Below, one piece after another: positions 11,562 to 49,184 of a DNA stretch of 64,000 nucleotides; positions within the stretch are counted from its first letter, which is position 1; every line of letters begins with the position of its first letter. The DNA lies in contig DMXN01000032.1 in the NCBI GenBank assembly GCA_003482885.1, forward strand, positions 13,129 through 77,128, read 5' to 3'. The notes under the pieces were generated by a model. It was not told the origin of the DNA and searched no databases. It worked only from the letters and a program-made list of their open reading frames with translations. Source of the stretch: Candidatus Moraniibacteriota bacterium. Lineage in GTDB: Bacteria > Patescibacteriota > Minisyncoccia > Moranbacterales > UBA2206. Position numbers and translations under genes: made by a program.

Positions 11562-12932
11562 ATGTACAGTGTCATTCTTTGTGGCGGAGCAGGAACAAGA
11601 CTGTGGCCGCTTTCGCGAAAAAATTTTCCAAAACAATTCCTTAATCTCTTCGGAAACAAAACGCTGATTCAGGAAACATATTCTCGCATGCGGGAAATTA
11701 TGCCCAAGGAAAATATTTTTTTCATCACAAATAAAGAAGGATTTTTTAATGTTGCCAATCAAATAATCGAAATTGAAAAAGAATTTAACAAGAATCAAAT
11801 TTTTATCGAACCAAAAAGTCAAAACACCGCTCCGGCAATCACGCTGGCAATGAAATTTTTGGAAGAAAAATTTAAAATCAGTCCAGAAAGTCCCATCGCT
11901 TTTCTTCCGTCCGATCATTATATCAAGAACAAGGATGTTTTTCTTAAAATAATTAAAAAAGCTATGCAAAATGTCGGCAACCATATAGGCACCATCGGCA
12001 TAATACCGACAATTCCGACCACTGCTTACGGCTATATAAAAAAAGGAGAAAAAAATGAACATTTTTCCAAAGCTTTGGAATTCAAGGAGAAACCAACTGA
12101 GGAAAAAGCCAAGGAATATATCGCTTCGGGAAATTTTGTGTGGAATTCCGGAATATATATTTTCAACCGCCAAACGCTTCTAAACGAACTCGAAAAACAT
12201 TGTCCGGAAATATATGAAATTGCTGAAAATAATCTAGAAAAATTTTTGGAAAAATTCGCTGAACTTCCATCTGTTTCAATCGACTATGCCATATCGGAAA
12301 AATCAAATAACACCATAGTTTTTGACGGAGATTTCGGCTGGAATGATGTCGGATCTTTTGACAGCATCGCGGAAATAAGCGAAAAAAAACCCGACAAAAA
12401 GCATATCGCCATTGATTCTAAAAATATTTTTATTCACAGTAATAACAATCGTATAATAGCGACTATCGGAGTGGATGATTTAAATGTGATAGAAACCGCC
12501 GATAGCATTCTTATTCAAAAAAAGGGTCGTGGTGAAGATGTGAAAAAAATAATCGATTATCTGAAAGAAAACAAATTAAAAGAGCTTGAGCATGTTCTTC
12601 TTGTTCACAGACCATGGGGAAAATATGAAGTTTTGATTGATGATCCGGATCACAAAGTGAAAAAAATAACAGTTTATCCGGGAGCAAAATTAAGCTTGCA
12701 AGCACACAATCATCGCGCCGAACATTGGATAGTTGTCAAAGGCACAGCCAAAGTTACCAATGGCGACAAAGAAATATTTTTATTTGAAAACGAAAACACC
12801 TACATTCCAAAAATGGCGAAACACAGATTGGAAAATACCGGAAAAATAAATCTTGAAATCATCGAAGTGCAAACCGGAAACTATTTGGAAGAAGACGACA
12901 TTATTCGTTTTGATGATGTCTATAATCGTTAA
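11562..12932 (+). CDS. manC: Mannose-1-phosphate guanylyltransferase / mannose-6-phosphate isomerase (bifunctional, C-terminal cupin)
   Basis: MYSVILCGGAGTRLWPLSRKNFPKQF is the nucleotidyltransferase G-loop. The C-terminus is a cupin (RPWGKYEVL…YPGAKLSLQAHNHRAEHWIVVKG). Confidence 0.85.
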   Translation: MYSVILCGGAGTRLWPLSRKNFPKQFLNLFGNKTLIQETYSRMREIMPKENIFFITNKEGFFNVANQIIEIEKEFNKNQIFIEPKSQNTAPAITLAMKFLEEKFKISPESPIAFLPSDHYIKNKDVFLKIIKKAMQNVGNHIGTIGIIPTIPTTAYGYIKKGEKNEHFSKALEFKEKPTEEKAKEYIASGNFVWNSGIYIFNRQTLLNELEKHCPEIYEIAENNLEKFLEKFAELPSVSIDYAISEKSNNTIVFDGDFGWNDVGSFDSIAEISEKKPDKKHIAIDSKNIFIHSNNNRIIATIGVDDLNVIETADSILIQKKGRGEDVKKIIDYLKENKLKELEHVLLVHRPWGKYEVLIDDPDHKVKKITVYPGAKLSLQAHNHRAEHWIVVKGTAKVTNGDKEIFLFENENTYIPKMAKHRLENTGKINLEIIEVQTGNYLEEDDIIRFDDVYNR

Positions 12933-12950
12933 TAAATACTTTTAAAAATT

Positions 12951-14384
12951 ATGAAAATCAACCCAAGCATTTTTCGCGGCTATGATCTTAGGGGAATAGC
13001 CGGAACAGATCTTACTCCAGAAATCGTGGAACATATAGGCAGAGCTCATGGAACCTATATGAAAAGACATGGAATAACAAAAGCGATTGTCGGACGCGAT
13101 TGTCGATTTACCAGCGCCGAATACAGCGACGCTTTAATTAGAGGATTTAGTTGGGCTGGAATTGACACAATTGATATTGGCTTGAATATGGTAGGCACTT
13201 TTTATTGGGCGCAATATCATCTTAACGCAAAAGGTGGCGCTTTTGTGACCGCCTCACACAATCCATCTGAATATAATGGATTTAAATTCGCCATTGATTT
13301 TTCAGAAACATTAGTAAGCGAAGGAATGCAAGAACTGCGCCGAATGGTTGAAGAAGAAGATTATAAACAAGACAAGCAACCGGGAAAAATAGAAAAACAA
13401 AATATCAGCGAAGTTTATTTTGAAGATTTAAATAAAAGATTACCAATAACAAAAAAATTCAGAGTTGTTATCGACCCGAGCAATTCCACCGCCGGAGCGA
13501 TCGTTCCTGAATTTTTGAGAAAAATCGGATGCGAAGTGATTGAAAAAAATTGCAATATTGATCCGTCCTTTCCATTGGGAACTCCGGACCCAACTGAAAG
13601 CCGCGTCGCTGAAAGAATGAAAAAAGAAGTACTGGAAGAAAAAGTCGACCTTGGATTTTCCTATGACGCCGACGGGGATCGCATCGGAATTATTGATGAC
13701 AAAGGAGGCATAATTTGGAACGATGTGCTGGTAGCGCTATTTGCAATTGATGTTTTGCGTAATCATCCGGGAGAAAGAATAATGTATAACACGCTTTGCT
13801 CAAAAGTTGTGGAAGATACGATTAAAAAAAACGGCGGCGTACCGTTTATGTGGAGAACCGGTCATTCGTTTTTGAAGAAAAAAAATCAAGAAGTGAAAGC
13901 GGCCTTTATCGGAGAACTTTCCGGCCATTTCTTTTTTTCCAAAGATTTTTACAATCATGATGATGGAATATATTCGACTCTGCGTTTATTGTCATACTTG
14001 TCCAGAACTAATCAGTCGCTTTCTGAAGCAGTGGCTGGTCTACCAAAATATATTTCCAGTCCGGAAATAAAACTTGGCTGCGCGGACAATGTGAAGGTTG
14101 CGTTGATTGAAAAAATGAGCGAGATTTTAAAAAAAGATTTTCCGCAAGCGGAAGTGGTTTCCGATGAACGGGCGGGAGATGGAGTAAGATTGAATATGGA
14201 CGATTCAATGTTTGTTGTACGCTATTCTCAAAATGGACCATACCTCACAATAAAATTTGAAGCTAAAACTCAAGAAAAATATGACCAGCTGAAAAAATAT
14301 CTTAATACTTTTCTTCATAATTATCCGGAAGTGGATTGGACCGGCAAAACTATCGCAACAGTAAACGCAGAAGTTTTGGCGTAA
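12951..14384 (+). CDS. manB: Phosphomannomutase/phosphoglucomutase
   Basis: The active-site segment is TASHNPSEYNGFKF, with a GDGDR metal-binding loop (SYDADGDRIGI). It lies 18 nt downstream of manC. Confidence 0.8.
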   Translation: MKINPSIFRGYDLRGIAGTDLTPEIVEHIGRAHGTYMKRHGITKAIVGRDCRFTSAEYSDALIRGFSWAGIDTIDIGLNMVGTFYWAQYHLNAKGGAFVTASHNPSEYNGFKFAIDFSETLVSEGMQELRRMVEEEDYKQDKQPGKIEKQNISEVYFEDLNKRLPITKKFRVVIDPSNSTAGAIVPEFLRKIGCEVIEKNCNIDPSFPLGTPDPTESRVAERMKKEVLEEKVDLGFSYDADGDRIGIIDDKGGIIWNDVLVALFAIDVLRNHPGERIMYNTLCSKVVEDTIKKNGGVPFMWRTGHSFLKKKNQEVKAAFIGELSGHFFFSKDFYNHDDGIYSTLRLLSYLSRTNQSLSEAVAGLPKYISSPEIKLGCADNVKVALIEKMSEILKKDFPQAEVVSDERAGDGVRLNMDDSMFVVRYSQNGPYLTIKFEAKTQEKYDQLKKYLNTFLHNYPEVDWTGKTIATVNAEVLA

Positions 14385-14432
14385 AACAAAAAACCGTAGG
14401 GATGCGCCATGGCGCGTTCCTACGGTTTTTCT
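14384..14432. terminator. Bidirectional rho-independent terminator between manB (+) and trpS (-)
   Basis: Long hairpin ccgtaggga-tgcgccatggcgcgt-tcctacgg (14394-14425), flanked by an A-run on the left and a T-run on the right. Confidence 0.6.
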
Positions 14433-14454
14433 ATTCAACAATATTTTACCAAAC

Positions 14455-15522
14455 TTACACAACAAACCCAATTTTCTTTTTCACTTCATCCAATTTTTTT
14501 CTAGCAATCGGGCGGGCTTTCTTTGCGCCTTCTTCCAAGATTTTTAAAACTTTTTCATCCGACAAATCGCGCATCCGCGCTTGTAAAGGTTTTAAAAATG
14601 TGATAATCACCTCAGCTAAGTCGTTTTTAAAATCAGCGTAACCCTTGCCTTTATATAATTCTTCCGCTTCTTTTGCAGTTTTGTCCGAAAGTAAAGAATA
14701 AATATTGATCAAATTTTTGAGCGCCGGTTTTTCATCGCTGTAAATTATTTCCGAACCGGAATCTGTCACAGCTTTTTTAATTTTTCTTCGCACAGTTTCC
14801 TCATCATTAGAAAGCGCGATATAGTTATATTCCGAGCTCGCCGACTTGGACATTTTTTTGCTCGGATCATCCAACCCCATAATATTCTCGCTTTCTTTTT
14901 TTGTGTACGCTTCCGGAATAATAAAAGTTTCCCCGAATTTTTTGTTAAACCGTTTTGCCAAATCCCGCGCCAATTCAATATGCTGTTTTTGATCTTTCCC
15001 CACTGGCACAATCTGCGTTCCATATAACAAAATATCCGCCGCCATTAAAACAGGGTAATCGAAAAGACCGACACCGGTCTTATTAAATAGATACTCGTAA
15101 TATTCTTCTGGCTCAAGCACTTCCCTTTTAATCTCTTTCCCTTCTAACTTATGTTTTAAAATTATTCTTCGTTCTTGAATATTGGTTTTATCTTTAAACT
15201 GCGTCATTTTCATTAAATCAGAATTTCTTGCAATCGCATTTAAAATCCAGCACAATTCCGCATGCTCCGAAATATGCGATTGAATAAAAATCACGCATTT
15301 TTTTGGATCGATACCGGCAGCTAAATAAATTTTCGCGACTTCAATAGTTCGTTTTTTTAATTCTTCCGGATTTTGCGGAACAGTAATCGCGTGCATATCC
15401 ACCACGCAAAAAATCGAATCGAACTCGTCTTGAAGTTTGACCCAATTTTGAATGGCGCCTAAATAATTGCCAATATGCAGATTGCCGCTTGGCTGGATGC
15501 CGGAAAAAATTCTTTGTTTCAT
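14455..15522 (-). CDS. trpS: Tryptophanyl-tRNA synthetase
   Basis: Class I motifs are present: SGIQPSGNLHIGNYLGAI (HIGH) and KMSKS (DPSKKMSKSA). Confidence 0.9.
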   Translation of the reverse strand: MKQRIFSGIQPSGNLHIGNYLGAIQNWVKLQDEFDSIFCVVDMHAITVPQNPEELKKRTIEVAKIYLAAGIDPKKCVIFIQSHISEHAELCWILNAIARNSDLMKMTQFKDKTNIQERRIILKHKLEGKEIKREVLEPEEYYEYLFNKTGVGLFDYPVLMAADILLYGTQIVPVGKDQKQHIELARDLAKRFNKKFGETFIIPEAYTKKESENIMGLDDPSKKMSKSASSEYNYIALSNDEETVRRKIKKAVTDSGSEIIYSDEKPALKNLINIYSLLSDKTAKEAEELYKGKGYADFKNDLAEVIITFLKPLQARMRDLSDEKVLKILEEGAKKARPIARKKLDEVKKKIGFVV

Positions 15523-39344: not shown

Positions 39345-40175
39345 TTATAGCTTCGCATTGATTAGATTCTTTAAAATATTTTTCATATTTTTGCTGACAT
39401 TTTTTATATAATTCGCATCATCAATAAATGCTTCCAAATCCAATTCGATGCTTTTGGTGTCGGCTTTTTTAATATTGTCCAAAAGTATTTTCTTCAAGTC
39501 TTCTAAATTTTTCACATTTTCAATGCAAGAAATATTCGGAATAATTTCTTTTTCCAAATACCACATCAAATCAAAATAATCACGACCTTTAACCATCACT
39601 AAATCATTACCGTTTTTATCCGTTTTTTTCCACTGCCGGTTAAGAACCGCTCGAATTTTTGTCGCCATCAAAGTCGGCAAATCAAATGATTTTATCAAAA
39701 TAGACTTATTATATTTGAATAACGGCAAAATTTCGGTTTTATATTTTTTGCAAAAATCGAATCCGGAAAAAATTTCCACTTTCAAAAACAATAAGTCCGA
39801 CTCGCTTTTTAAGGACAAACCGATTTCATTGAGAATTGGAAATTTCAAATACACTCGAAATTTCTGCGCTGTTGTTTTGACCTGAAAACTATATTTGGCT
39901 TTAAAGAAACTTTCCAAATCACTTTTCAATTCAGTAATATCAACTTCTTTTTTCAAATCGACAAAATCCAAATCCTCGGAAAGCCGCGGCAATTTATGGC
40001 ACTGCGCAAGACACGACCCGCCATAAAAAACCAAATCGCTGTAACGCGGATGGGAATAAATAAAATCCAAAACCAAAATCTGCAAATAATCTTTGAGCAA
40101 ATTACGGTTGTACAGCGCGCTTTTCGAAGATGAATTCTGCAATAAATTTTTTAACTCTTCTTTAAGTCTTTCCAT
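39345..40175 (-). CDS. AbiEii-family nucleotidyltransferase toxin, pair #3
   Basis: LVFYGGSCLAQCHKLPRLSEDLDFVDLKK. Confidence 0.75.
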   Translation of the reverse strand: MERLKEELKNLLQNSSSKSALYNRNLLKDYLQILVLDFIYSHPRYSDLVFYGGSCLAQCHKLPRLSEDLDFVDLKKEVDITELKSDLESFFKAKYSFQVKTTAQKFRVYLKFPILNEIGLSLKSESDLLFLKVEIFSGFDFCKKYKTEILPLFKYNKSILIKSFDLPTLMATKIRAVLNRQWKKTDKNGNDLVMVKGRDYFDLMWYLEKEIIPNISCIENVKNLEDLKKILLDNIKKADTKSIELDLEAFIDDANYIKNVSKNMKNILKNLINAKL

Positions 40176-40819
40176 AGTTTTATTAAAATATTATAAAGCT
40201 CGCGCATTTTTTCTGATTTTTCCAGTTCAATATATTTTTTTAATTCGCTGATGTCATTGCTTTTTAATTCGCTTAAATTCAAACGCAATTCTTTGATCGC
40301 ACTTTCGGATAATAACATTTTTTTTCGAAAATACAAAAAATCAAAAAGCGCTTTGGCGACAGTCGCTTTTTTAAATGAAAAATTATTTTCTTTTAAAATC
40401 TTAAAACCGCAAAATAATTCAGGCTTAATGCTATGGTAATAAAAATTGTCTAAATTATTTGTCAACAGCTTTGTCTTTTTAAGAGCAACTGCCGTATAAT
40501 TTTTCGGCATTTCCGTTAAAAGATTATTTTCGGACAAAATATAATCCATGCTCAAATAGCTCGGTTCATAGATTATTCCGGAAACAAATTCTTCGTATCC
40601 GGTAAATAGATTTTTTCTTTTAATATCCTCTATATAATCAGCAGAAACATACATGCCTTTTTTAAGGCGAATGATTTTTCCGTTTTTTGAAAAACGCGAA
40701 AGCAGAACACGCAAAAAATGCCGGTTTTTTTCAATAGAAAAAACACTCTCCAGTGTAAAATACGGCAAAGTCTTCAAATGGTTTATTATATTGGCTGTTT
40801 TCGATATGTCATTTCTCAT
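40151..40819 (-). CDS. AbiEi-family antitoxin, pair #3
   Basis: …KGMYVSADY…YEPSYLSMDYILSENNLLTE; overlaps the toxin start by 25 nt. Confidence 0.7.
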   Translation of the reverse strand: MRNDISKTANIINHLKTLPYFTLESVFSIEKNRHFLRVLLSRFSKNGKIIRLKKGMYVSADYIEDIKRKNLFTGYEEFVSGIIYEPSYLSMDYILSENNLLTEMPKNYTAVALKKTKLLTNNLDNFYYHSIKPELFCGFKILKENNFSFKKATVAKALFDFLYFRKKMLLSESAIKELRLNLSELKSNDISELKKYIELEKSEKMRELYNILIKLWKDLKKS

Positions 40820-41687: not shown

Positions 41688-42866
41688 TTATTCTTTCAAG
41701 CTATCTATTTTTTTCAAATCAAAAATATTTTTTATCAGCATTTTTTTCTCAACAGCAAACTCATCAAACAGTTTTTTCTGTTCTTTATTCATTTCTGAAT
41801 TATACTTCGCTTCAATCAATGTTTTTCTTTCCGTCAAAAAATCAATTTCATTTTTTTCTCGATAAACATAGCGCGGATTGAGTTTTTTTATTTTCAAATA
41901 GACATAATTTTCAAATAAACTGCCCTTATCGCGAAAACCGGTAAAATATACGCGGATTCCCAAATCTGCGGCATAGATTTTCTTAGCGGATAATAATCGC
42001 TCGTTGGTTTTCCCGAAACGCGACACTAAAAAAATCAGATATGAATCAGCGAACATTTTCAAATATCTCTTGGCTGAATCTGGAGATATATCCAAAATTT
42101 TAGCGATTTTATTGATACTAATAATCTTGCCGGCTCTTTCCATAAGCAAAAGAAAAAAATCCTTAAGAATCTGCGTGTCTTTCACTCCATAGAAAGCGGC
42201 AATATCTTTTTGAATTATATCATCCACTAATTCTTTCAAATATTCAGTATTGCCGGTTAAGACATATTCAGGCATTCCGCCGGTTCGCATAAAATCCTCA
42301 AAATGGCGTTCCAATAAATGCTTATCAGTTTTTTTGACTATAATTTTTTTAAATCGCAAATATTCCTCAAAATCCAACGGTAAAACTTCAAGCGCGATAT
42401 TTCGTCCGGTTAAAAAAGCCTTCTTGCTTTTCAAAAGCGAAGCACTGGATGAAGAAGCGAAAATTTTAACATTTTGCTGATCATAAATATTTTTAAGCTG
42501 CAACTCAAAATCTTTTTGATAAGCGACTTCGTCCAAAAAAAGATAAACTTTTTTAGAAAAAACGATTTTATGAATTTTTCGATATTCATCGATAATTTCC
42601 AAAATATTTTTATTGGCCAAAAGATAATCATCCATACTCGCGTAAAAAATCAATTTTGGGTTGATTTTCATTTCAGCTATAAGATAATAAATAAGTTGCT
42701 TCATTAAGGTGGTTTTGCCAACACGCCGCAGTCCGGTCAAGAAAATGATCTGCTTGGTAGCTAAATTATCTTTTAGCGCTTCAAAAATTTGCGGTCTGTC
42801 AATAATGTTTTTTAGCTCAAATTCACCTTCCCACCAAGGATTATAACGATACAATATTTGTTCCAT
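41688..42866 (-). CDS. AAA+ ATPase (AAA_14 plus DUF4143 type)
   Basis: NPWWEGEFE…IIFLTGLRRVGKTTLMKQL is the Walker A region, with the typical ~390-aa architecture. Confidence 0.75.
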   Translation of the reverse strand: MEQILYRYNPWWEGEFELKNIIDRPQIFEALKDNLATKQIIFLTGLRRVGKTTLMKQLIYYLIAEMKINPKLIFYASMDDYLLANKNILEIIDEYRKIHKIVFSKKVYLFLDEVAYQKDFELQLKNIYDQQNVKIFASSSSASLLKSKKAFLTGRNIALEVLPLDFEEYLRFKKIIVKKTDKHLLERHFEDFMRTGGMPEYVLTGNTEYLKELVDDIIQKDIAAFYGVKDTQILKDFFLLLMERAGKIISINKIAKILDISPDSAKRYLKMFADSYLIFLVSRFGKTNERLLSAKKIYAADLGIRVYFTGFRDKGSLFENYVYLKIKKLNPRYVYREKNEIDFLTERKTLIEAKYNSEMNKEQKKLFDEFAVEKKMLIKNIFDLKKIDSLKE

Positions 42867-42946: not shown

Positions 42947-43140
42947 AACAAAAGTAGAAATCTTATATTGGTATCAGCTAATGTTTCCTTTTCTTTTTTC
43001 CGACAGCAATCGGAATTGTTTAAAAAAAAATTTAAAAAATCTTTTTCCGTTTTGGGCGAAGGGCAGAGGGGTTAGGAGTGAATGCCCAAAATCCAAAACA
43101 CAATATTTCTTTTCAAACAAACAGGCAAAAAGGAAGGGGT

Positions 43141-44661
43141 TTAAGGGGAAGGAATTTTTGCCTTTTTGTTTTCGTTCATCAATTTGCTCATTTTTATTTT
43201 TGGGTTTATCCCTAATTCAAAACATTTTCTTGCCCACGATTCGATCTTTTGTTTTAGAATTATAGAATTAATTCCAGATATTTTTTTAGGTAAATTCTTG
43301 TTTTGTATAACTAACCAAATGCAGTAATTTTTAAAATTAGTGTCTACTTTTTTTATATTTGCTTTTTTGCTAATCAGTTCTAATGTGTTATTTGCTTGAT
43401 CACAGACATAACCTAATTTTTGTGCAGTTCCAAATTTTACGGCATAAACAGTTTCACCTTTTTTTGAATCCCACGCCTCAATCAGTGTCCCAGCTTTAAC
43501 TTTAATGATTGAAAAATTTTTATCAGCATTTGTATACCCGTGTTTTTTTAGATTTTCATTAAAATCATCTTCTACCCCAGTAATTTCAAGTAAATCATTT
43601 TCCACTTCTTCAAGATCAATACTATCTATGTATTCGTTTAACTGATCTATGTAATCCTCATTAAATTTCATCCATTTACCTTGTGTTAGAAGTACATTCT
43701 GATCATCTATTATGTAATCAATAGATTCCTTTACGGTTTTTGAGAAAGGCTTTGCATCTTCTTTGATGATGTGAACTCTGATATTTAGGATTTGCTCTTT
43801 TGATATAGAATGCGTTAATATAAAAGCCTTTAATTTGTCGATTGAGAGATCTTCAAATTCACCCGAAGCATAACTGTCTAAGGAAAATTTATATTTTTCT
43901 TGTCCAGAGAAAATAAAATCAATTCCAATAAGTTCGTGACTATTTGAAGTAAAATCTGTGCCTTCCCTTGCAGAGATAATTTCTTCTACTAATTTATTCT
44001 CATACCCTTCTGTTATGGGGGTTGCATCAAGGATTACAGTTCTTGGTAGTTTAAATAATTCAGGTAACTCATAAGCTTTGATTATTGATTCTAAAAATAC
44101 CGCCAGTGTTTCTTTTTCGATTATCGGACTCAACAATGAAGAAGAGCCAAATTTGCCAGATTTACCAAAATCTTTTATAAAATCTTTCGAAATAGATGAT
44201 TGTAAATAATCAATAGATTCCCCACTTTCGATGTCTAGTTGGCTGTTTTTTGTATAGCTCTTTATTTCTTTTTTCTTTTTTCCCGCGAATTTTTTTGACG
44301 ATTTTTGTCTAATATCTTTCTGGTTTGCAATTCTTTTGGCTATATGAATACCGAAATCATGGTCACAAAATTGGCGTAGATAAAAATGTGATTTTCCATA
44401 GCTTAATGCGAAACAATATTTTTCATTTTTCCAAATATAGGCACAATAAAATATTTTATTTTCAGGTTTATCCCCAGTAAAGAAATCTTTATATGTAGTT
44501 ACCCATGGAATTTGAATCGGATCTATATCTTTAGAGAAATAAAAATCAGCCTTCCATCCATTTTGTTCGGTGGAGTTAATATTTTTAAGTCCCAATAATT
44601 CAAATTTATCTTTTAAATTAGCGACTTTATCCTTTGGAATTTTGAATATATTTAGCTTCAT
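43141..44661 (-). CDS. Hypothetical 506-aa protein linked to the type IIS R-M cluster (possible nuclease/accessory component)
   Basis: No motif recognisable by eye. It starts 2 nt after the stop of the beta-class MTase gene upstream. Acidic and Lys-rich. Confidence 0.35.
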   Translation of the reverse strand: MKLNIFKIPKDKVANLKDKFELLGLKNINSTEQNGWKADFYFSKDIDPIQIPWVTTYKDFFTGDKPENKIFYCAYIWKNEKYCFALSYGKSHFYLRQFCDHDFGIHIAKRIANQKDIRQKSSKKFAGKKKKEIKSYTKNSQLDIESGESIDYLQSSISKDFIKDFGKSGKFGSSSLLSPIIEKETLAVFLESIIKAYELPELFKLPRTVILDATPITEGYENKLVEEIISAREGTDFTSNSHELIGIDFIFSGQEKYKFSLDSYASGEFEDLSIDKLKAFILTHSISKEQILNIRVHIIKEDAKPFSKTVKESIDYIIDDQNVLLTQGKWMKFNEDYIDQLNEYIDSIDLEEVENDLLEITGVEDDFNENLKKHGYTNADKNFSIIKVKAGTLIEAWDSKKGETVYAVKFGTAQKLGYVCDQANNTLELISKKANIKKVDTNFKNYCIWLVIQNKNLPKKISGINSIILKQKIESWARKCFELGINPKIKMSKLMNENKKAKIPSP

Positions 44662-44662
44662 G

Positions 44663-45445
44663 TTAAATGTTTGGCGTTAATCTTTTTTTAGCAATCCCTA
44701 CATATTGCTTTTCTTTTTCAATCCCAATCCAATCCCGACCAAATTTTTTAGCTACAAAAGCTGTAGTTCCGCTTCCTAAGAATGGATCCAAAATAATGTC
44801 GCCCTTGCTGGAGCTTGCTAAAATTATTCTTTTTAGCATTTCTTCTGGTTTTTGAGTTGGATGCAACGCCTTACCGTCTTTGCCTCGTACTCTTTCTTTG
44901 CCTTGAACTAATGGTAATTCCCAAAAGTCACGCATTTGTTTTTCGGTTCCATCTTTTTGTTTTTCAGGATTTATTTCTTTAATTTTTTTATAATTAAAAG
45001 TCCAGCCACTACCTTTGACAGCCCAGATTACAAATTCTGTTGCGTGAGTAAACACCCTCCTTGTCATATTCGGCATGGCGTTCGTTTTATACCAAGTAAT
45101 GATGTTATTTACTTTGAAATCAAGCTGTTTTAGTACAATCATTACTTCTCCAATGTTGTGATAACTGCATGCGATGTAGATTGATCCTGTGTCTTTTAAA
45201 ACTTTGTGGCAAGCTCCGATCCATTTTCTTGTAAACTGTAAATATTCAGGCGCTGTCATTTTGTCCCAATGTTCATTTACCATATACCAATCTCCACCAG
45301 TTTTGCTACCTTGCCATTTTAAACCATTGCCAGATAAATTATATGGAGGATCAGCAAAGACAAGATCAATAGAACTCTTATCAATCTTTGTATTGAGTAT
45401 GCTTATGCAATCGTCGTTGTAGATAATATTTTTTTTCATACTCAT
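44663..45445 (-). CDS. Beta-class DNA methyltransferase (N6-adenine or N4-cytosine)
   Basis: Motif IV DLVFADPPYNLSGNG is N-terminal. Motif I DIILDPFLGSGTTAFVAKKFGRDWIGIE is C-terminal. Confidence 0.8.
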   Translation of the reverse strand: MSMKKNIIYNDDCISILNTKIDKSSIDLVFADPPYNLSGNGLKWQGSKTGGDWYMVNEHWDKMTAPEYLQFTRKWIGACHKVLKDTGSIYIACSYHNIGEVMIVLKQLDFKVNNIITWYKTNAMPNMTRRVFTHATEFVIWAVKGSGWTFNYKKIKEINPEKQKDGTEKQMRDFWELPLVQGKERVRGKDGKALHPTQKPEEMLKRIILASSSKGDIILDPFLGSGTTAFVAKKFGRDWIGIEKEKQYVGIAKKRLTPNI

Positions 45446-45448
45446 AGG

Positions 45449-47266
45449 TTAAAAATTTAGACTTTTTTGCCATGACGAAATGGCATTTGGGATATTCCTA
45501 AGCCAGCCATCTGAATCGCTAAAAGAATTTGATGAATTGATTATTTCATCGTATAGGCGAGCAATTTCGCTATGTTTTAAAAATTTATTCTCTGTTTTTA
45601 TCTGTACGAGTACTTTCAAAAGAGACACGAAATTGTTTATTGATAAAGGAATTATTTTTTGTTTATTACCCTCGTATTCATATTTTATGGCCGTCCAAAA
45701 GGTATTTATAGTATCTCTGTGCATTTGGGGAGCAATAAACAAGCAATATGTAGTTTTGTCACTATGTTTATTTTCAAAATCTCTTAAATGTCTCATCACT
45801 GGTTGCCCCTCGTTATACCACTGATCTCTGCCCGTTAGCATTGTTGCCTCACAAATAGCATTAAAACTTTGATAAAAACACTCAATATCTGGCGTGTTTG
45901 CTGGTGCTGTAAATGTTGGTTCGTTATCATCGCCGACTGGATAGTTTGGCTGTATTTTTAATGCATCGTTCAGGGCATTCAGACCCAATGATGATAACTT
46001 TTCAAGCAGTATTGGTCTGTCTTCAGATTCAAAAATATTTTCAAATTCTTGAATGTAGGATTTAATTTGTTCTGTGTCTTGTGACTTTTGATGATTTTGT
46101 TTGTCTTGTAGCTCTCTTCGATAGTTTCGCAGTTCATTGATAAATTTTTTCAATCTATCTTCATCTAGTTTTTGATAATCCAAAAATACTTTTGGCGTTA
46201 TCCTCGTTTCTCGTTCAAATAACTTTATATCTTCAAGCAATTTTATGGCAATTTCAATAAGCTTTTCTTTAGTTTCCCATGGTAATTTTGGCTCAGAGAT
46301 GTCAGAAATATAGTCTAAGTATTTCTCTTTTGATTCAAATGTCTTTGATTGAGCATTATCAAAATCCAACAAAGCATCAATTTCAACCGATCTTCTCGGC
46401 TCCAGATCAATATAAAAACCACCACCCCGTATATAAATATAGCGAGTTAGGCGGAAGTATCTGATAGCGTTGTCTCCATAGTCTTTGAGATTTTTTAGTA
46501 GCTTTTGAATTTCTGTAGTATTTGGTTTTCCAATAAATTCCCGTGCGAAAGTTTTTTTATATTTGTCTCGGATTGTTTTTTGTTCCTGCTTCGGTTTGTC
46601 TTTAAGGTCTTTTCGTAATGCGATAATTTTTTCAGAATAAATTTCTATATCTTCATAATTAACAAGGGTTGGACAAAATAAAGAAAATTCTTCCTTACTT
46701 ATTCCTTTTTCTTTTTCTCCTGATTTCCTAGATTTTTTATTTACTTCCCGAATAAGATGAAGCACGCCGACAAATGGTTCTATGTTGTATCCATCTTCAA
46801 GTTTATAGTCATCACTATCAGGGTTTGGGATTTGCCACTTGATAAAACTTCTAAAGAATATTTCACCAAGATCAAAATCGTCTTTTAGAAATAGTTTTCC
46901 TAAGCTGGTTATACAGATTTTTTCATCTTTAATGACAGCAAGCCCAAATTTTTTAAGAGGGTTTATTGATTGCCGCCCTCTCATTGAAGGATCTTTATAG
47001 TTTTTAGCATTAAAAATCGTTTCGGCTTGTTCAAAGGTAATTGTTTTTGTTTGATCGTCAATTAAATCAATTTGTTCATAAGATAATCCATTGTAAAATT
47101 GGTTGCTTCCATAGCCGTAAACCCTTTCTTTTATCAAAAGAATTTGATATTTTCTCTGACTTTCTAAATCCCACTTACAATTTTCAAGCTGTTTTAAAAC
47201 AATTAAAAAATCTCTCAATCTTTCAGGATTTCTTAGTGTTGTAGTAATTGACCAAGGTTTTTTCAT
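45449..47266 (-). CDS. AlwI/BstNBI/MlyI-family type IIS restriction (or nicking) endonuclease
   Basis: N-terminal WSITTTLRNPERL…, mid-protein IEPFVGVLHLIREVNKK and C-terminal YCLFIAPQMH…IIPLSINNFVSLLKV parallel the conserved blocks of Nt.BstNBI/AlwI-family enzymes; 605 aa. Confidence 0.65.
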   Translation of the reverse strand: MKKPWSITTTLRNPERLRDFLIVLKQLENCKWDLESQRKYQILLIKERVYGYGSNQFYNGLSYEQIDLIDDQTKTITFEQAETIFNAKNYKDPSMRGRQSINPLKKFGLAVIKDEKICITSLGKLFLKDDFDLGEIFFRSFIKWQIPNPDSDDYKLEDGYNIEPFVGVLHLIREVNKKSRKSGEKEKGISKEEFSLFCPTLVNYEDIEIYSEKIIALRKDLKDKPKQEQKTIRDKYKKTFAREFIGKPNTTEIQKLLKNLKDYGDNAIRYFRLTRYIYIRGGGFYIDLEPRRSVEIDALLDFDNAQSKTFESKEKYLDYISDISEPKLPWETKEKLIEIAIKLLEDIKLFERETRITPKVFLDYQKLDEDRLKKFINELRNYRRELQDKQNHQKSQDTEQIKSYIQEFENIFESEDRPILLEKLSSLGLNALNDALKIQPNYPVGDDNEPTFTAPANTPDIECFYQSFNAICEATMLTGRDQWYNEGQPVMRHLRDFENKHSDKTTYCLFIAPQMHRDTINTFWTAIKYEYEGNKQKIIPLSINNFVSLLKVLVQIKTENKFLKHSEIARLYDEIINSSNSFSDSDGWLRNIPNAISSWQKSLNF

Positions 47267-47268
47267 AA

Positions 47269-49077
47269 TTATTTTGTTACATTACAATAAAAAATTCGTT
47301 CGGCGTTTCCATCGCCATTGCTTTTCCCAGCAGTGAACGCCTTATAATCTCTTTCAAAAATTTCTACTTCACCTTTGTTTTTTAATATTCGTAAAATATC
47401 ATTGTCGTTTATTCTAGCATTTGAGCGCCCATCTTTTGAATCCCCAGTATTATTATAAGACAATAATATATGTTTACAATTTACATTTTTAATTAAGTCC
47501 TCAAATGCCTGTGTAGCATTTTTAAGGCAATAGGAGCTTTTTATGTGGGAGCGATCCATTTTTTTTGCTACTCCTTCAACATTAGGTTTTTTCCATTCAG
47601 CTAAATTTTCCAGTAAATGATAGGCATCTGAATATTGACGCGAGTTATAGGGCGGATCTATGTATAAAACATCGCAAACAATTTTTCTAATCAAGATATT
47701 TGCGTCTTCTTTGTAAATATCGTTATTTCCGTTATTTAAGTGGTCAATATCTGGGGCTAAAAGTTTTACTGGCTGTAGCATGTCTAAATCTTTACGAAAA
47801 GCGTCATAATGTCCGACGGTATTTGCAACCTTGTCAACGGCATAAATTAAGGAACAGATGAGAATGTTTTTTTCTTCTTCCGTTTCGGCAATTCTTTCTA
47901 TTTCTTCACGGATTGCCCCAATCTTTCTAGCATTTTCTAGTGAAAAATAAGTATTACCAAAGTATTTTGAAAAATAATTATCTTGATCAGTTTTCAAATT
48001 ATTGAGAATATCAATTTTATCCGCAATGTTCTGAATAGGTGAATTTGTACCAAGAAACGTTTTTAGACAAACATAATTTGTAAAAAGGAAATCATTAGAA
48101 ATAATTTTTATTTCTGGTTTATTAAATCTTTCTCCGACAACACCTGTCCCTGCGAAAATATCACAAAATGATTTTATTCCGTTGCATTTTTCTGCGACAA
48201 TATCTTCAATAAATCCGAGCAGTTTATATTTATTACCTAAGTATCTTCTATTTTGCAATTGGAAGGTATTGTTTTGAGTTTTTGAAAAGTGAAAATAGGG
48301 TTTGTCAATTTTTTGTATGGTCGTTACCTCGTAGGCTAGTTTTTCAATTTCAAGTAAGGCGAAAAGAGTACCCTGTATTCCGTCAGCGACATAATCAAAC
48401 CCCTCTTTTTTCTTTTTTAACTTTTCGTAAAAACTATAATGATTATTTTCAGAAACAATAATGAAATCAATAACGGGAATACCCATTATTTCTCCCGCTT
48501 GTGCAATTTTTTCAACAACTTCAATATCTTTTTCGCTTGGCGAAGAATCACCTGAAGGGTGATTGTGAATTAGAATAACGCTGGCGGCGTTTAATTCCGT
48601 AGCTGGGTAGAAAATTTCTCTTGGGTGTAGTAATGCCTTATCTAATAGTCCGATGCTAACGACTTCCTTTTTGAGTAGGGAATTTCTAGCATTAAGATAC
48701 AAACAGACCAGATGTTCTTTTTTCTTATCCCTTAAATCGTAAGTAAGAGACAGAACATCTTGGGAATTTTTGATAATAATCTCGTTTGATTTTTCATCCG
48801 CATAAAATCTTTTTACCAACGAAATTGCGGAAGTAATTTGTAGTGCTTTAGCTTGACCAATACCCGAAATCTCTAAAAGATCATCAACGGTTATATTCAA
48901 AAAGTTTTTACCGAATTTTTTAATAATACTCTCCGAAAGTTGCCTAACATTTTTACCTTTTATACCACTGCCTAAAAGAATCGCCAAAAGATCACTTTTT
49001 GAAAGTGCGTCAGCCCCTTTTTTTAGAAATTTTTCTCTCGGGCGATCAATTTTTGGTATATCCTTAATTTTTGGCAT
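47269..49077 (-). CDS. Fusion protein: RadC-like JAB/MPN domain (N-terminal) plus Dam-family (alpha-class, D12) N6-adenine DNA methyltransferase (C-terminal)
   Basis: N-terminal MPKIKDIPKIDRPREKFLKKGADALSKSDLLAILLGSGIKGKNV…ILIHNHPSGDSSPSEKDI is the RadC JAMM motif. The C-terminus reads RRYLGNKYKLL…FCDIFAGTGVVG…ISND…VLYIDPPYNS, the Dam motifs. Confidence 0.7.
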   Translation of the reverse strand: MPKIKDIPKIDRPREKFLKKGADALSKSDLLAILLGSGIKGKNVRQLSESIIKKFGKNFLNITVDDLLEISGIGQAKALQITSAISLVKRFYADEKSNEIIIKNSQDVLSLTYDLRDKKKEHLVCLYLNARNSLLKKEVVSIGLLDKALLHPREIFYPATELNAASVILIHNHPSGDSSPSEKDIEVVEKIAQAGEIMGIPVIDFIIVSENNHYSFYEKLKKKKEGFDYVADGIQGTLFALLEIEKLAYEVTTIQKIDKPYFHFSKTQNNTFQLQNRRYLGNKYKLLGFIEDIVAEKCNGIKSFCDIFAGTGVVGERFNKPEIKIISNDFLFTNYVCLKTFLGTNSPIQNIADKIDILNNLKTDQDNYFSKYFGNTYFSLENARKIGAIREEIERIAETEEEKNILICSLIYAVDKVANTVGHYDAFRKDLDMLQPVKLLAPDIDHLNNGNNDIYKEDANILIRKIVCDVLYIDPPYNSRQYSDAYHLLENLAEWKKPNVEGVAKKMDRSHIKSSYCLKNATQAFEDLIKNVNCKHILLSYNNTGDSKDGRSNARINDNDILRILKNKGEVEIFERDYKAFTAGKSNGDGNAERIFYCNVTK

Positions 49078-49184
49078 AAATTATTTTCGTAGCGGAGAGG
49101 CGAAAACACCTTTTTGATTTGCCATAAAGTTATAATTTATTTTTACCTCTTCATTCTACCATTTTTAAATCTTCATGCCAACGC

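Follow-up and report, generated by a model that had tools for sequence, protein, structure and literature searches.

What does a RadC protein do at the front of a DNA methyltransferase (MTase)? The question is raised by a gene in a stretch of 64,000 nucleotides from a Candidatus Moraniibacteriota bacterium (contig DMXN01000032.1, positions 13,129 to 77,128; hereafter the window), in which RadC and an adenine-specific MTase are encoded in a single reading frame of 602 aa at 47269..49077 on the minus strand. The frame is ATG-initiated and without interruption. It is the first of four genes packed tightly head to tail on this strand, the others encoding an AlwI-family endonuclease, a beta-class MTase and a DUF6119 protein. 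Comparison with related loci identifies the open reading frame (ORF) as the head gene (M1) of what is by its sequence a horizontally mobile Type IIS restriction-modification (R-M) cassette with a variable defence gene in the last position.

The RadC half consists of a UPF0758_N/HhH domain at aa 4-78 (48844..49068, on the minus strand like all cassette features given below; Pfam PF20582, E 1e-22) and a RadC JAB/MPN domain at aa 102-219 (48421..48774; PF04002, E 8e-38). The latter matches 2QLC (E 2e-25), which is the sole solved RadC structure. An N-terminal HhH, a C-terminal JAB and an intact JAMM motif (E...HxH...S...D) are thus all present, as expected of the RadC family, and this half scores above the cutoffs of both the RadC equivalog model NF000642/PRK00024 of NCBIfam (218.4 bits, cutoff 180) and TIGR00608 (211 bits, cutoff 133.85). 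The core of the JAMM motif, H171-x-H173...S175...D184, is encoded at nt 48526-48567, and E154, H171, H173, S175 and D184 are invariant among 49 aligned homologs. No second radC was found within the window.

The other half, aa 273-602 (47272..48261), is a D12-class (alpha-group) N6-adenine DNA MTase domain by its PADLOC match (MTase_II, PDLC03373, E 4e-114) and its Pfam match to MethyltransfD12 (PF02086, aa 279-535, E 3e-32). The S-adenosylmethionine (AdoMet) motif I (FxGxG; FAGTG at nt 48142-48156) lies N-terminal to the catalytic motif IV (DPPY, nt 47647-47658), which is the order of this class. In the preliminary description the MTase had been called Dam-family, but the Dam model TIGR00571 gave 24.8 bits against a cutoff of 114.85 and matched aa 466-544 alone; the half is therefore a D12-class adenine methylase and not a Dam orthologue. 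The in-frame fusion itself was correctly described, and the motifs quoted for it are invariant across the 49 homologs: HNHPSG...PS..D (aa 171-184), RRYLGNK (277-283), FAGTG (308-312) and DPPY (474-477).

The two halves are joined by a flexible linker at aa 220-272 (48262..48420). The AlphaFold2 (AF2) model of the fusion is mediocre (predicted local distance difference test (pLDDT) score 64, predicted template modelling score 0.52), with a pLDDT below 50 for aa 220-267. As internal starts for a separate MTase only ATG198, which lies within the JAB domain, and TTG274, which has no Shine-Dalgarno sequence, were available, and neither is plausible; the first methylase of the cassette is evidently produced as an obligate RadC fusion.

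Could the join be an artefact, two ordinary neighbouring genes connected by a frameshift or a lost stop codon in one assembly? The exact 602-aa protein was found on 18 contigs, which were assembled independently and come from no fewer than 6 separate runs or samples, each time with the same neighbours, and the frameshift scenario is therefore excluded. The fusion is moreover uninterrupted in at least 120 distinct 90%-identity clusters and in about 60 GTDB species representatives, and the linker itself is under purifying selection (dN/dS 0.23). The probability left to this explanation is practically nil.

Both halves have been maintained to the same degree. Over 118 full-length homologs the mean identity is 84% for the HhH domain, 83.5% for the JAB domain, 81% for the MTase and 61% for the linker, and the corresponding dN/dS values (Nei-Gojobori, with synonymous sites near saturation) are 0.067, 0.080, 0.066 and 0.23. 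Purifying selection on the RadC head is as strong as on the MTase. Given the equal conservation and the low dN/dS on both sides, both halves must be functional and the join must be ancient. When the window is compared with its closest relatives segment by segment, dS varies several-fold, which indicates mosaic recombination.

The fusion had been put forward as an unusual architecture. It is in fact common in metagenomes, where it is deposited as 'DNA repair protein RadC' or as 'adenine-specific DNA-methyltransferase'. A database search recovered the at least 120 clusters mentioned above, with proteins of about 600 aa that carry all three Pfam domains at 75-96% identity, and a scan of GTDB species representatives gave 66 loci. 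The bacterial hosts are WWE3 (96% identity), about a dozen Patescibacteria lineages, Poribacteria, Nitrospirae, Desulfobacteria and Margulisiibacteriota; the archaeal hosts belong to the Woesearchaeota/Nanoarchaeota (DPANN). Most are ultra-small organisms of the Candidate Phyla Radiation (CPR) and DPANN, and the fusion is also present in a 4.9-Mb Poribacteria chromosome and in a complete Moraniibacteriota genome. One metagenome-assembled genome has three RadC-headed loci. The fusion is thus common, ancient and widespread, and the distribution of its sequences places it in an R-M cassette family that crosses phylum and domain boundaries.

DNA homology between the window and the 66 loci begins no more than about 10 nt from the RadC ATG, and the flanks are unrelated. 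A chance landing of an R-M cassette beside a host radC near recA was considered and rejected: recA is upstream in none of the other loci, and between phyla the two halves of the protein are conserved to the same extent. No relatives were found in the viral contigs of IMG/VR, nor any phage or plasmid record covering at least 80% of the query. All contexts were chromosomal R-M cassettes, and the carriage on phages or conjugative elements that characterises polyvalent proteins was not seen.

The membership of the fusion in an R-M system, as had been proposed, is evident from its neighbours. The endonuclease gene (45449..47266, 605 aa) abuts the genes of both the fusion and the beta-class MTase, and this trio is conserved in 25 loci. 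Its product is a Type IIS restriction or nicking endonuclease of the AlwI/N.BspD6I family (PF09491, E 6e-80; N.BspD6I structure 2ewf, E 4.5e-35; PADLOC PDLC03393, E 3e-133), for which the best PADLOC model is named 'Type II nicking endonuclease'. The beta-class N6_N4 MTase (M2, 44663..45445, 260 aa) resembles CcrM and HinfI (PF01555, E 9e-64; below the CcrM equivalog cutoff). It is kept in all cassettes of this type and is presumed to be the partner that methylates the other strand.

A RadC module 69-95% identical to aa 1-225 of the window protein heads several different R-M systems. In type A, the arrangement of the window, the RadC-D12 MTase is followed by the AlwI-family endonuclease and the beta MTase. 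In type B the MTase part of the RadC-D12 fusion is only about 45% identical to that of the window, and the cassette also encodes another D12 MTase as well as an AlwI-family enzyme of 505 aa (about 25% identical). RadC is fused to C5 MTases in cassettes with R.HinP1I-family and with R.HpaII-family enzymes, and a RadC-C5-D12 triple fusion of more than 936 aa, the ORF of which runs off the contig end, was found in locus L060 (1612-4419). Fusions with C5 and with beta MTases were also seen for RadC heads that are more distantly related. A third cassette type (L053 669-4311, L056 8001-10754 and L061 8001-10700) has an intact RadC, then a Bro-N protein or no gene, and then a PLD/NgoFVII-like nuclease together with a beta MTase that shares 86-96% identity with M2 of the window. 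Here RadC is either a free protein of 260 aa (L061) or bears a D12 MTase stub of about 45 aa (L053, L056), and it has therefore been kept when the fused MTase was lost.

The fusion partner is always an MTase and never an endonuclease or a cargo gene, and the RadC-headed cassettes span four unrelated nuclease families (AlwI, HinP1I, HpaII and PLD). A rough neighbour-joining tree built on the D12 domain places RadC-headed lineages in no fewer than three separate positions. Some headless MTases inside the RadC and LexA clades (e.g. P0377, P0384 and P0389) look like truncated gene calls and were excluded from head losses. These comparisons establish a specific and repeated association of the RadC head with R-M methylases and identify the head as a modular unit, joined by what the sequences show as recombination to at least three MTase classes. 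The RadC parts are only about 45-53% identical to the nearest stand-alone RadC proteins. The preliminary description had argued from the fusion that the JAB domain acts on DNA-bound or restriction-related substrates; a functional tie between RadC and R-M is strongly reinforced by heads on three unrelated MTase classes, by the unfused RadC as first cassette gene and by selection equal to that on the MTase.

All RadC heads, irrespective of the partner, extend past the JAB domain into a tail of the form DY[VI]A[DE]G-x-Q-x-[TS]LF[DA]LL. In the window it reads D228-Y-V-A-D-G-I-Q235-G-T-L238-F239-A-L-L-E243 (aa 228-243, 48349..48396), with the QxxLF core at nt 48361-48375, inside the segment of the linker with an AF2 pLDDT below 50. 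D228, Y229, Q235, L238 and F239 are invariant in the 49 aligned homologs, and the motif is present in 145/145 RadC-D12 proteins as well as in C5-fused, beta-fused and free heads. The 25 stand-alone RadC representatives compared lack it and stop about 35 aa past the JAMM motif. The QxxLF core resembles the sliding-clamp-binding motif of bacteria, a resemblance that is suggestive only: the tails read Q-[GAN]-[TS]-L-F and so fit the clamp-binding consensus QL(S/D)LF (PMC9690074) at 4/5 positions, and such a motif arises in 6-13% of trials with shuffled linkers. Several stand-alone relatives of the MTase that are extended at the N-terminus (P0128, P0132 and P0149) have clamp-motif-like peptides near that end (QLNLSF, QLALF and QLSLPG), a hint that docking on the clamp may be more widespread in this MTase family.

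The closest sister clade of the window MTase (60-62% identical) bears a full LexA, with winged helix-turn-helix (HTH) and S24 domains, in the position of RadC. This LexA-headed family comprises at least 85 clusters, all from Patescibacteria, and has the same three-gene cassette with AlwI-family endonuclease and beta MTase (e.g. L078 8001-12284, L080 8001-12287 and L081 8001-12289). In LexA the A-G cleavage site and the catalytic residues Ser and Lys are intact in 70-78 of 78 sequences, which suggests that these may be SOS-responsive R-M cassettes. Their linkers, of independent origin and unrelated in sequence to those of the RadC heads, carry QLPLF in 63/80. A large serine recombinase is encoded near LexA-headed cassettes. 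Other relatives of the MTase have an N-terminal S24 domain alone, an XRE HTH or no head. About one third of the RadC-headed cassettes have a separate XRE or C-protein-like gene that abuts the RadC ATG.

The cassette shares with the AlwI, N.BstNBI, N.BspD6I, MlyI and PleI Type IIS systems a full-length PF09491 endonuclease homologous to N.BspD6I, two methylase activities, as expected for an asymmetric site, and a tight linkage of modification and restriction genes. It differs from them in the separate beta-class second MTase and in the RadC head on the first; the cultured relatives, on plasmids of Staphylococcus and Enterococcus, use a single double D12 MTase of about 700 aa without RadC. These double enzymes are the nearest cultured relatives, and the generalisation that such MTases normally stand alone, as had been assumed for Dam, does not hold for Type IIS systems. 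With the housekeeping RadC/YicR proteins (UPF0758; PRK00024; 2QLC) the window RadC has in common the end-to-end HhH and JAB domains, a score above the equivalog cutoff and an intact JAMM motif. Unlike them it has the head-specific tail, has R-M methylases as fusion partners or linked genes and is transferred horizontally, and its identity to them is the low value given above.

R-M methylases with N-terminal regulatory DNA-binding extensions, such as the C5 MTases of the SsoII type, and R-M operons under the control of C proteins offer another comparison. The likeness is in the extra N-terminal module on the first MTase of the operon, a position where close relatives of the window protein have LexA, S24 or XRE HTH domains; however, RadC is not a sequence-specific HTH protein, and many RadC cassettes have their own XRE gene upstream. 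Fusions of RadC with HhH, ArdC, DnaG primase and DinG/RAD3 helicase were described by Iyer, Zhang, Rogozin & Aravind (2011), and RadC is found in polyvalent proteins of phages and conjugative elements (Iyer et al. 2017). In those cases, as here, the RadC JAB domain is combined with domains of DNA transactions and conflict systems, which supports a nucleic-acid-related role, but no DNA methylase is listed among the partners and the carriers are conjugative elements and prophages rather than chromosomal R-M cassettes.

No description of a RadC-MTase fusion was found in the literature searched, and a 2026 survey of CPR methyltransferases does not mention such fusions. Of the possibility that the architecture was already common and characterised, the first part thus holds and the second does not. 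All component families were known, and the architecture was present, unremarked, in sequence databases; new are the modular RadC head, its specific partnership with methylases, the head-specific tail and the LexA-headed parallel.

Beyond the R-M trio, the fourth slot of the cassette is variable. In the window it is taken by a DUF6119/TIGR04141 protein of 506 aa identified by profile matches (43141..44661), as also in L014, L033 and L046; elsewhere it holds GmrSD (a Type IV nuclease), a HerA/DUF87 pair or AAA_13. Its spans in other loci are 12468-14555 (L005), 12413-15293 (L006), 12350-15043 (L010) and 12416-14617 (L001). DUF6119 had no PADLOC match as a known defence protein; it nevertheless travels with R-M cassettes. 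The GC content is 0.32 in the cassette versus 0.41 in the adjacent recA-rodZ-ftsK genes. Downstream of the cassette PADLOC identified a PDC-S01 candidate ATPase (AAA_14/DUF4143, 41688-42866) and, farther on, an AbiEi/AbiEii pair (40151-40819 and 39345-40175), which places the cassette in a defence island. The ATPase and this pair are separated by a nucleoside-diphosphate kinase gene, and a second AbiEii is found on the source contig past ftsK.

Upstream of the fusion gene, between it and a recA terminator hairpin read from the sequence, a sigma-70-like promoter-like site, TTGGCA-17-TG-n-TAGAAT (49153..49181), occurs in sequence specific to the window; it is a consensus match only, and the count of such sites is not above that in shuffled sequence. 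Some cassettes of types A and B (L005-L007, L028, L029, L053 and L055) have a conserved leader, about 200 nt long (…GGTGTTTTCTCCGCTTCGCTACGAAAACGATTTATTTATAAGGGGAAAACGAATACAAT…), ahead of RadC. The window retains a remnant of it at 49078..49120, with about 40 nt kept and an internal deletion of about 56 nt. In other cassettes an XRE HTH gene or a DUF4357 gene abuts the RadC ATG instead. At the other end, a conserved non-coding 3' element of about 200 nt (42976..43172), which overlaps the final DUF6119 codons, recurs in at least 10 loci, each time downstream of the cargo, with 77-87% conservation across phyla. It contains two hairpins of 10 bp and 17 bp, the loops of which are rich in C (CCCCTTAAACCCC / CACCCCTAACCCC), and a third that resembles a terminator. 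The element had no Rfam match, and the 17-bp hairpin was without covariation support. An integron attC site was considered and rejected, as the arms, judged by eye, do not fit the RYYYAAC/GTTRRRY cores. The mobile unit may have its 3' boundary at this element.

We tentatively read the RadC head as a cis-acting, flexibly tethered and DNA-directed accessory that places the methylase on new or arriving DNA, a proposal to which we give somewhat less than an even chance. The head would hold the methylase on a given state of DNA, be it fresh DNA behind the replisome, patches of repair or recombination, or incoming DNA; contact with the DNA would be made through non-specific binding by the HhH domain, and the invariant QxxLF tail would probably dock on the sliding clamp. 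Modification could thereby keep pace with restriction. This would be critical when a mobile R-M system enters naive hosts, and likewise at asymmetric sites, which need one MTase per strand. The retained JAB site would presumably act on some DNA-associated substrate. A precedent for the docking is the binding of DNMT1 to PCNA (PMC9690074), in which a short linear Qxx[L]-type motif likewise appears to lie in a disordered segment N-terminal to the MTase domain; the motif of the window is, however, of the bacterial QxxLF type and not a PIP box, and a limited literature search found no bacterial DNA methyltransferase with a clamp-binding motif. Several points weigh against this proposal. No biochemical activity has been reported for any RadC in the literature searched. 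The clamp idea depends on a motif of five residues with the partial fit and the background frequency given above, and the RadC tails, being all homologous, count as one observation. Some hosts are archaea, with PCNA in place of the beta clamp. The AF2 model gives no confident inter-domain geometry, the assignment of the D12 and beta MTases to the two strands is presumed only, and the conserved JAB catalytic site is left without explanation by tethering or clamp docking.

The LexA-headed cassettes invite a different reading, in which RadC, a DNA-binding domain with a peptidase, is the functional analogue of LexA, a DNA-binding domain with an S24 peptidase. Such a head would sense DNA damage or single-stranded DNA, for instance from self-restriction, and then alter the output of the MTase or of the operon; the JAB domain might, for example, cut within the linker or cleave a partner protein such as the endonuclease. 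A bona fide LexA with its cleavage apparatus mostly intact takes the exact position of RadC in the same three-gene cassette, the LexA- and RadC-headed MTases are sister clades, other relatives have S24 alone or an XRE HTH there, and the tail residues D228, Y229 and G233 could form a recognition or cleavage site. We nevertheless consider a regulatory, damage-responsive head unlikely. HhH domains bind DNA without sequence specificity, which makes the head a poor operator binder, and in the one third of RadC cassettes with an XRE or C-protein-like gene of their own the role of regulator is already taken. Characterised JAB peptidases cut at Gly-Gly sites, and the linker has none; Iyer et al. moreover argue that the RadC JAB domain lacks the groove for a ubiquitin tail and is likelier to process nucleic acids. 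RadC might instead be a hitch-hiking passenger, a mobile-element protein with its own role in establishment, anti-restriction or DNA processing on arrival, its fusion reflecting gene compaction in tiny genomes and having no meaning for methylation. This would suit the unfused RadC of L061, the intact RadC beside truncated MTase parts in L053 and L056, the frequency of RadC-like genes on mobile elements, where they are also fused to the anti-restriction protein ArdC, and the predominance of ultra-small CPR and DPANN hosts. It accords poorly with a fusion that arose repeatedly and with three MTase classes, that was kept over saturating synonymous divergence without an internal start to free the MTase, that always has the MTase and never the endonuclease or the cargo as partner, and that persists in a 4.9-Mb genome without pressure for compaction; a mere passenger is in our judgement a minor possibility. 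The removal of DNA-protein adducts of methylation by the JAB domain, or its proteolytic control of the nuclease, both of which the preliminary description had offered, found no direct support and we regard them as improbable, although the JAMM site is intact and invariant and some RadC heads are found on C5 MTases. C5 MTases form covalent DNA intermediates and N6-adenine MTases do not; adduct removal thus cannot explain the fusion to the latter (D12 and beta), which are the commonest partners. As for control of the nuclease, no link between RadC and the endonuclease was found, and the nucleases of RadC-headed cassettes belong to four families that are not related to one another.

Nearly all bacteria have RadC, a protein whose 'DNA repair' label came into question in 2008. 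It is competence-induced in several species yet dispensable in standard transformation assays, and according to a 2026 preprint its mechanism is still elusive. The recurrent recruitment of one tight RadC clade to three chemically different classes of R-M methylase, taken with the strong selection on these modules and their extra conserved motif, is the first concrete and testable genetic context for RadC, and the joining of the head to several unrelated methylases links it to restriction-modification biology. In ultra-small microbes, R-M cassettes that are widespread and mobile have swappable heads (RadC, LexA or none), which bears on how R-M systems establish themselves in new hosts without killing them. 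A bolder form of the clamp proposal, speculative and in our view rather unlikely, is that the RadC head is a clamp-docked DNA-processing module that links R-M methylases with replication, with repair or with DNA entering the cell and so is the prokaryotic equivalent of DNMT1-PCNA coupling, and that the housekeeping, competence-induced RadC has the same job of managing the modification and restriction status of new DNA. If true, such a role would explain why radC mutants have no phenotype in standard transformation assays, and the LexA-headed cassettes would be a second solution, tying R-M output to DNA damage.

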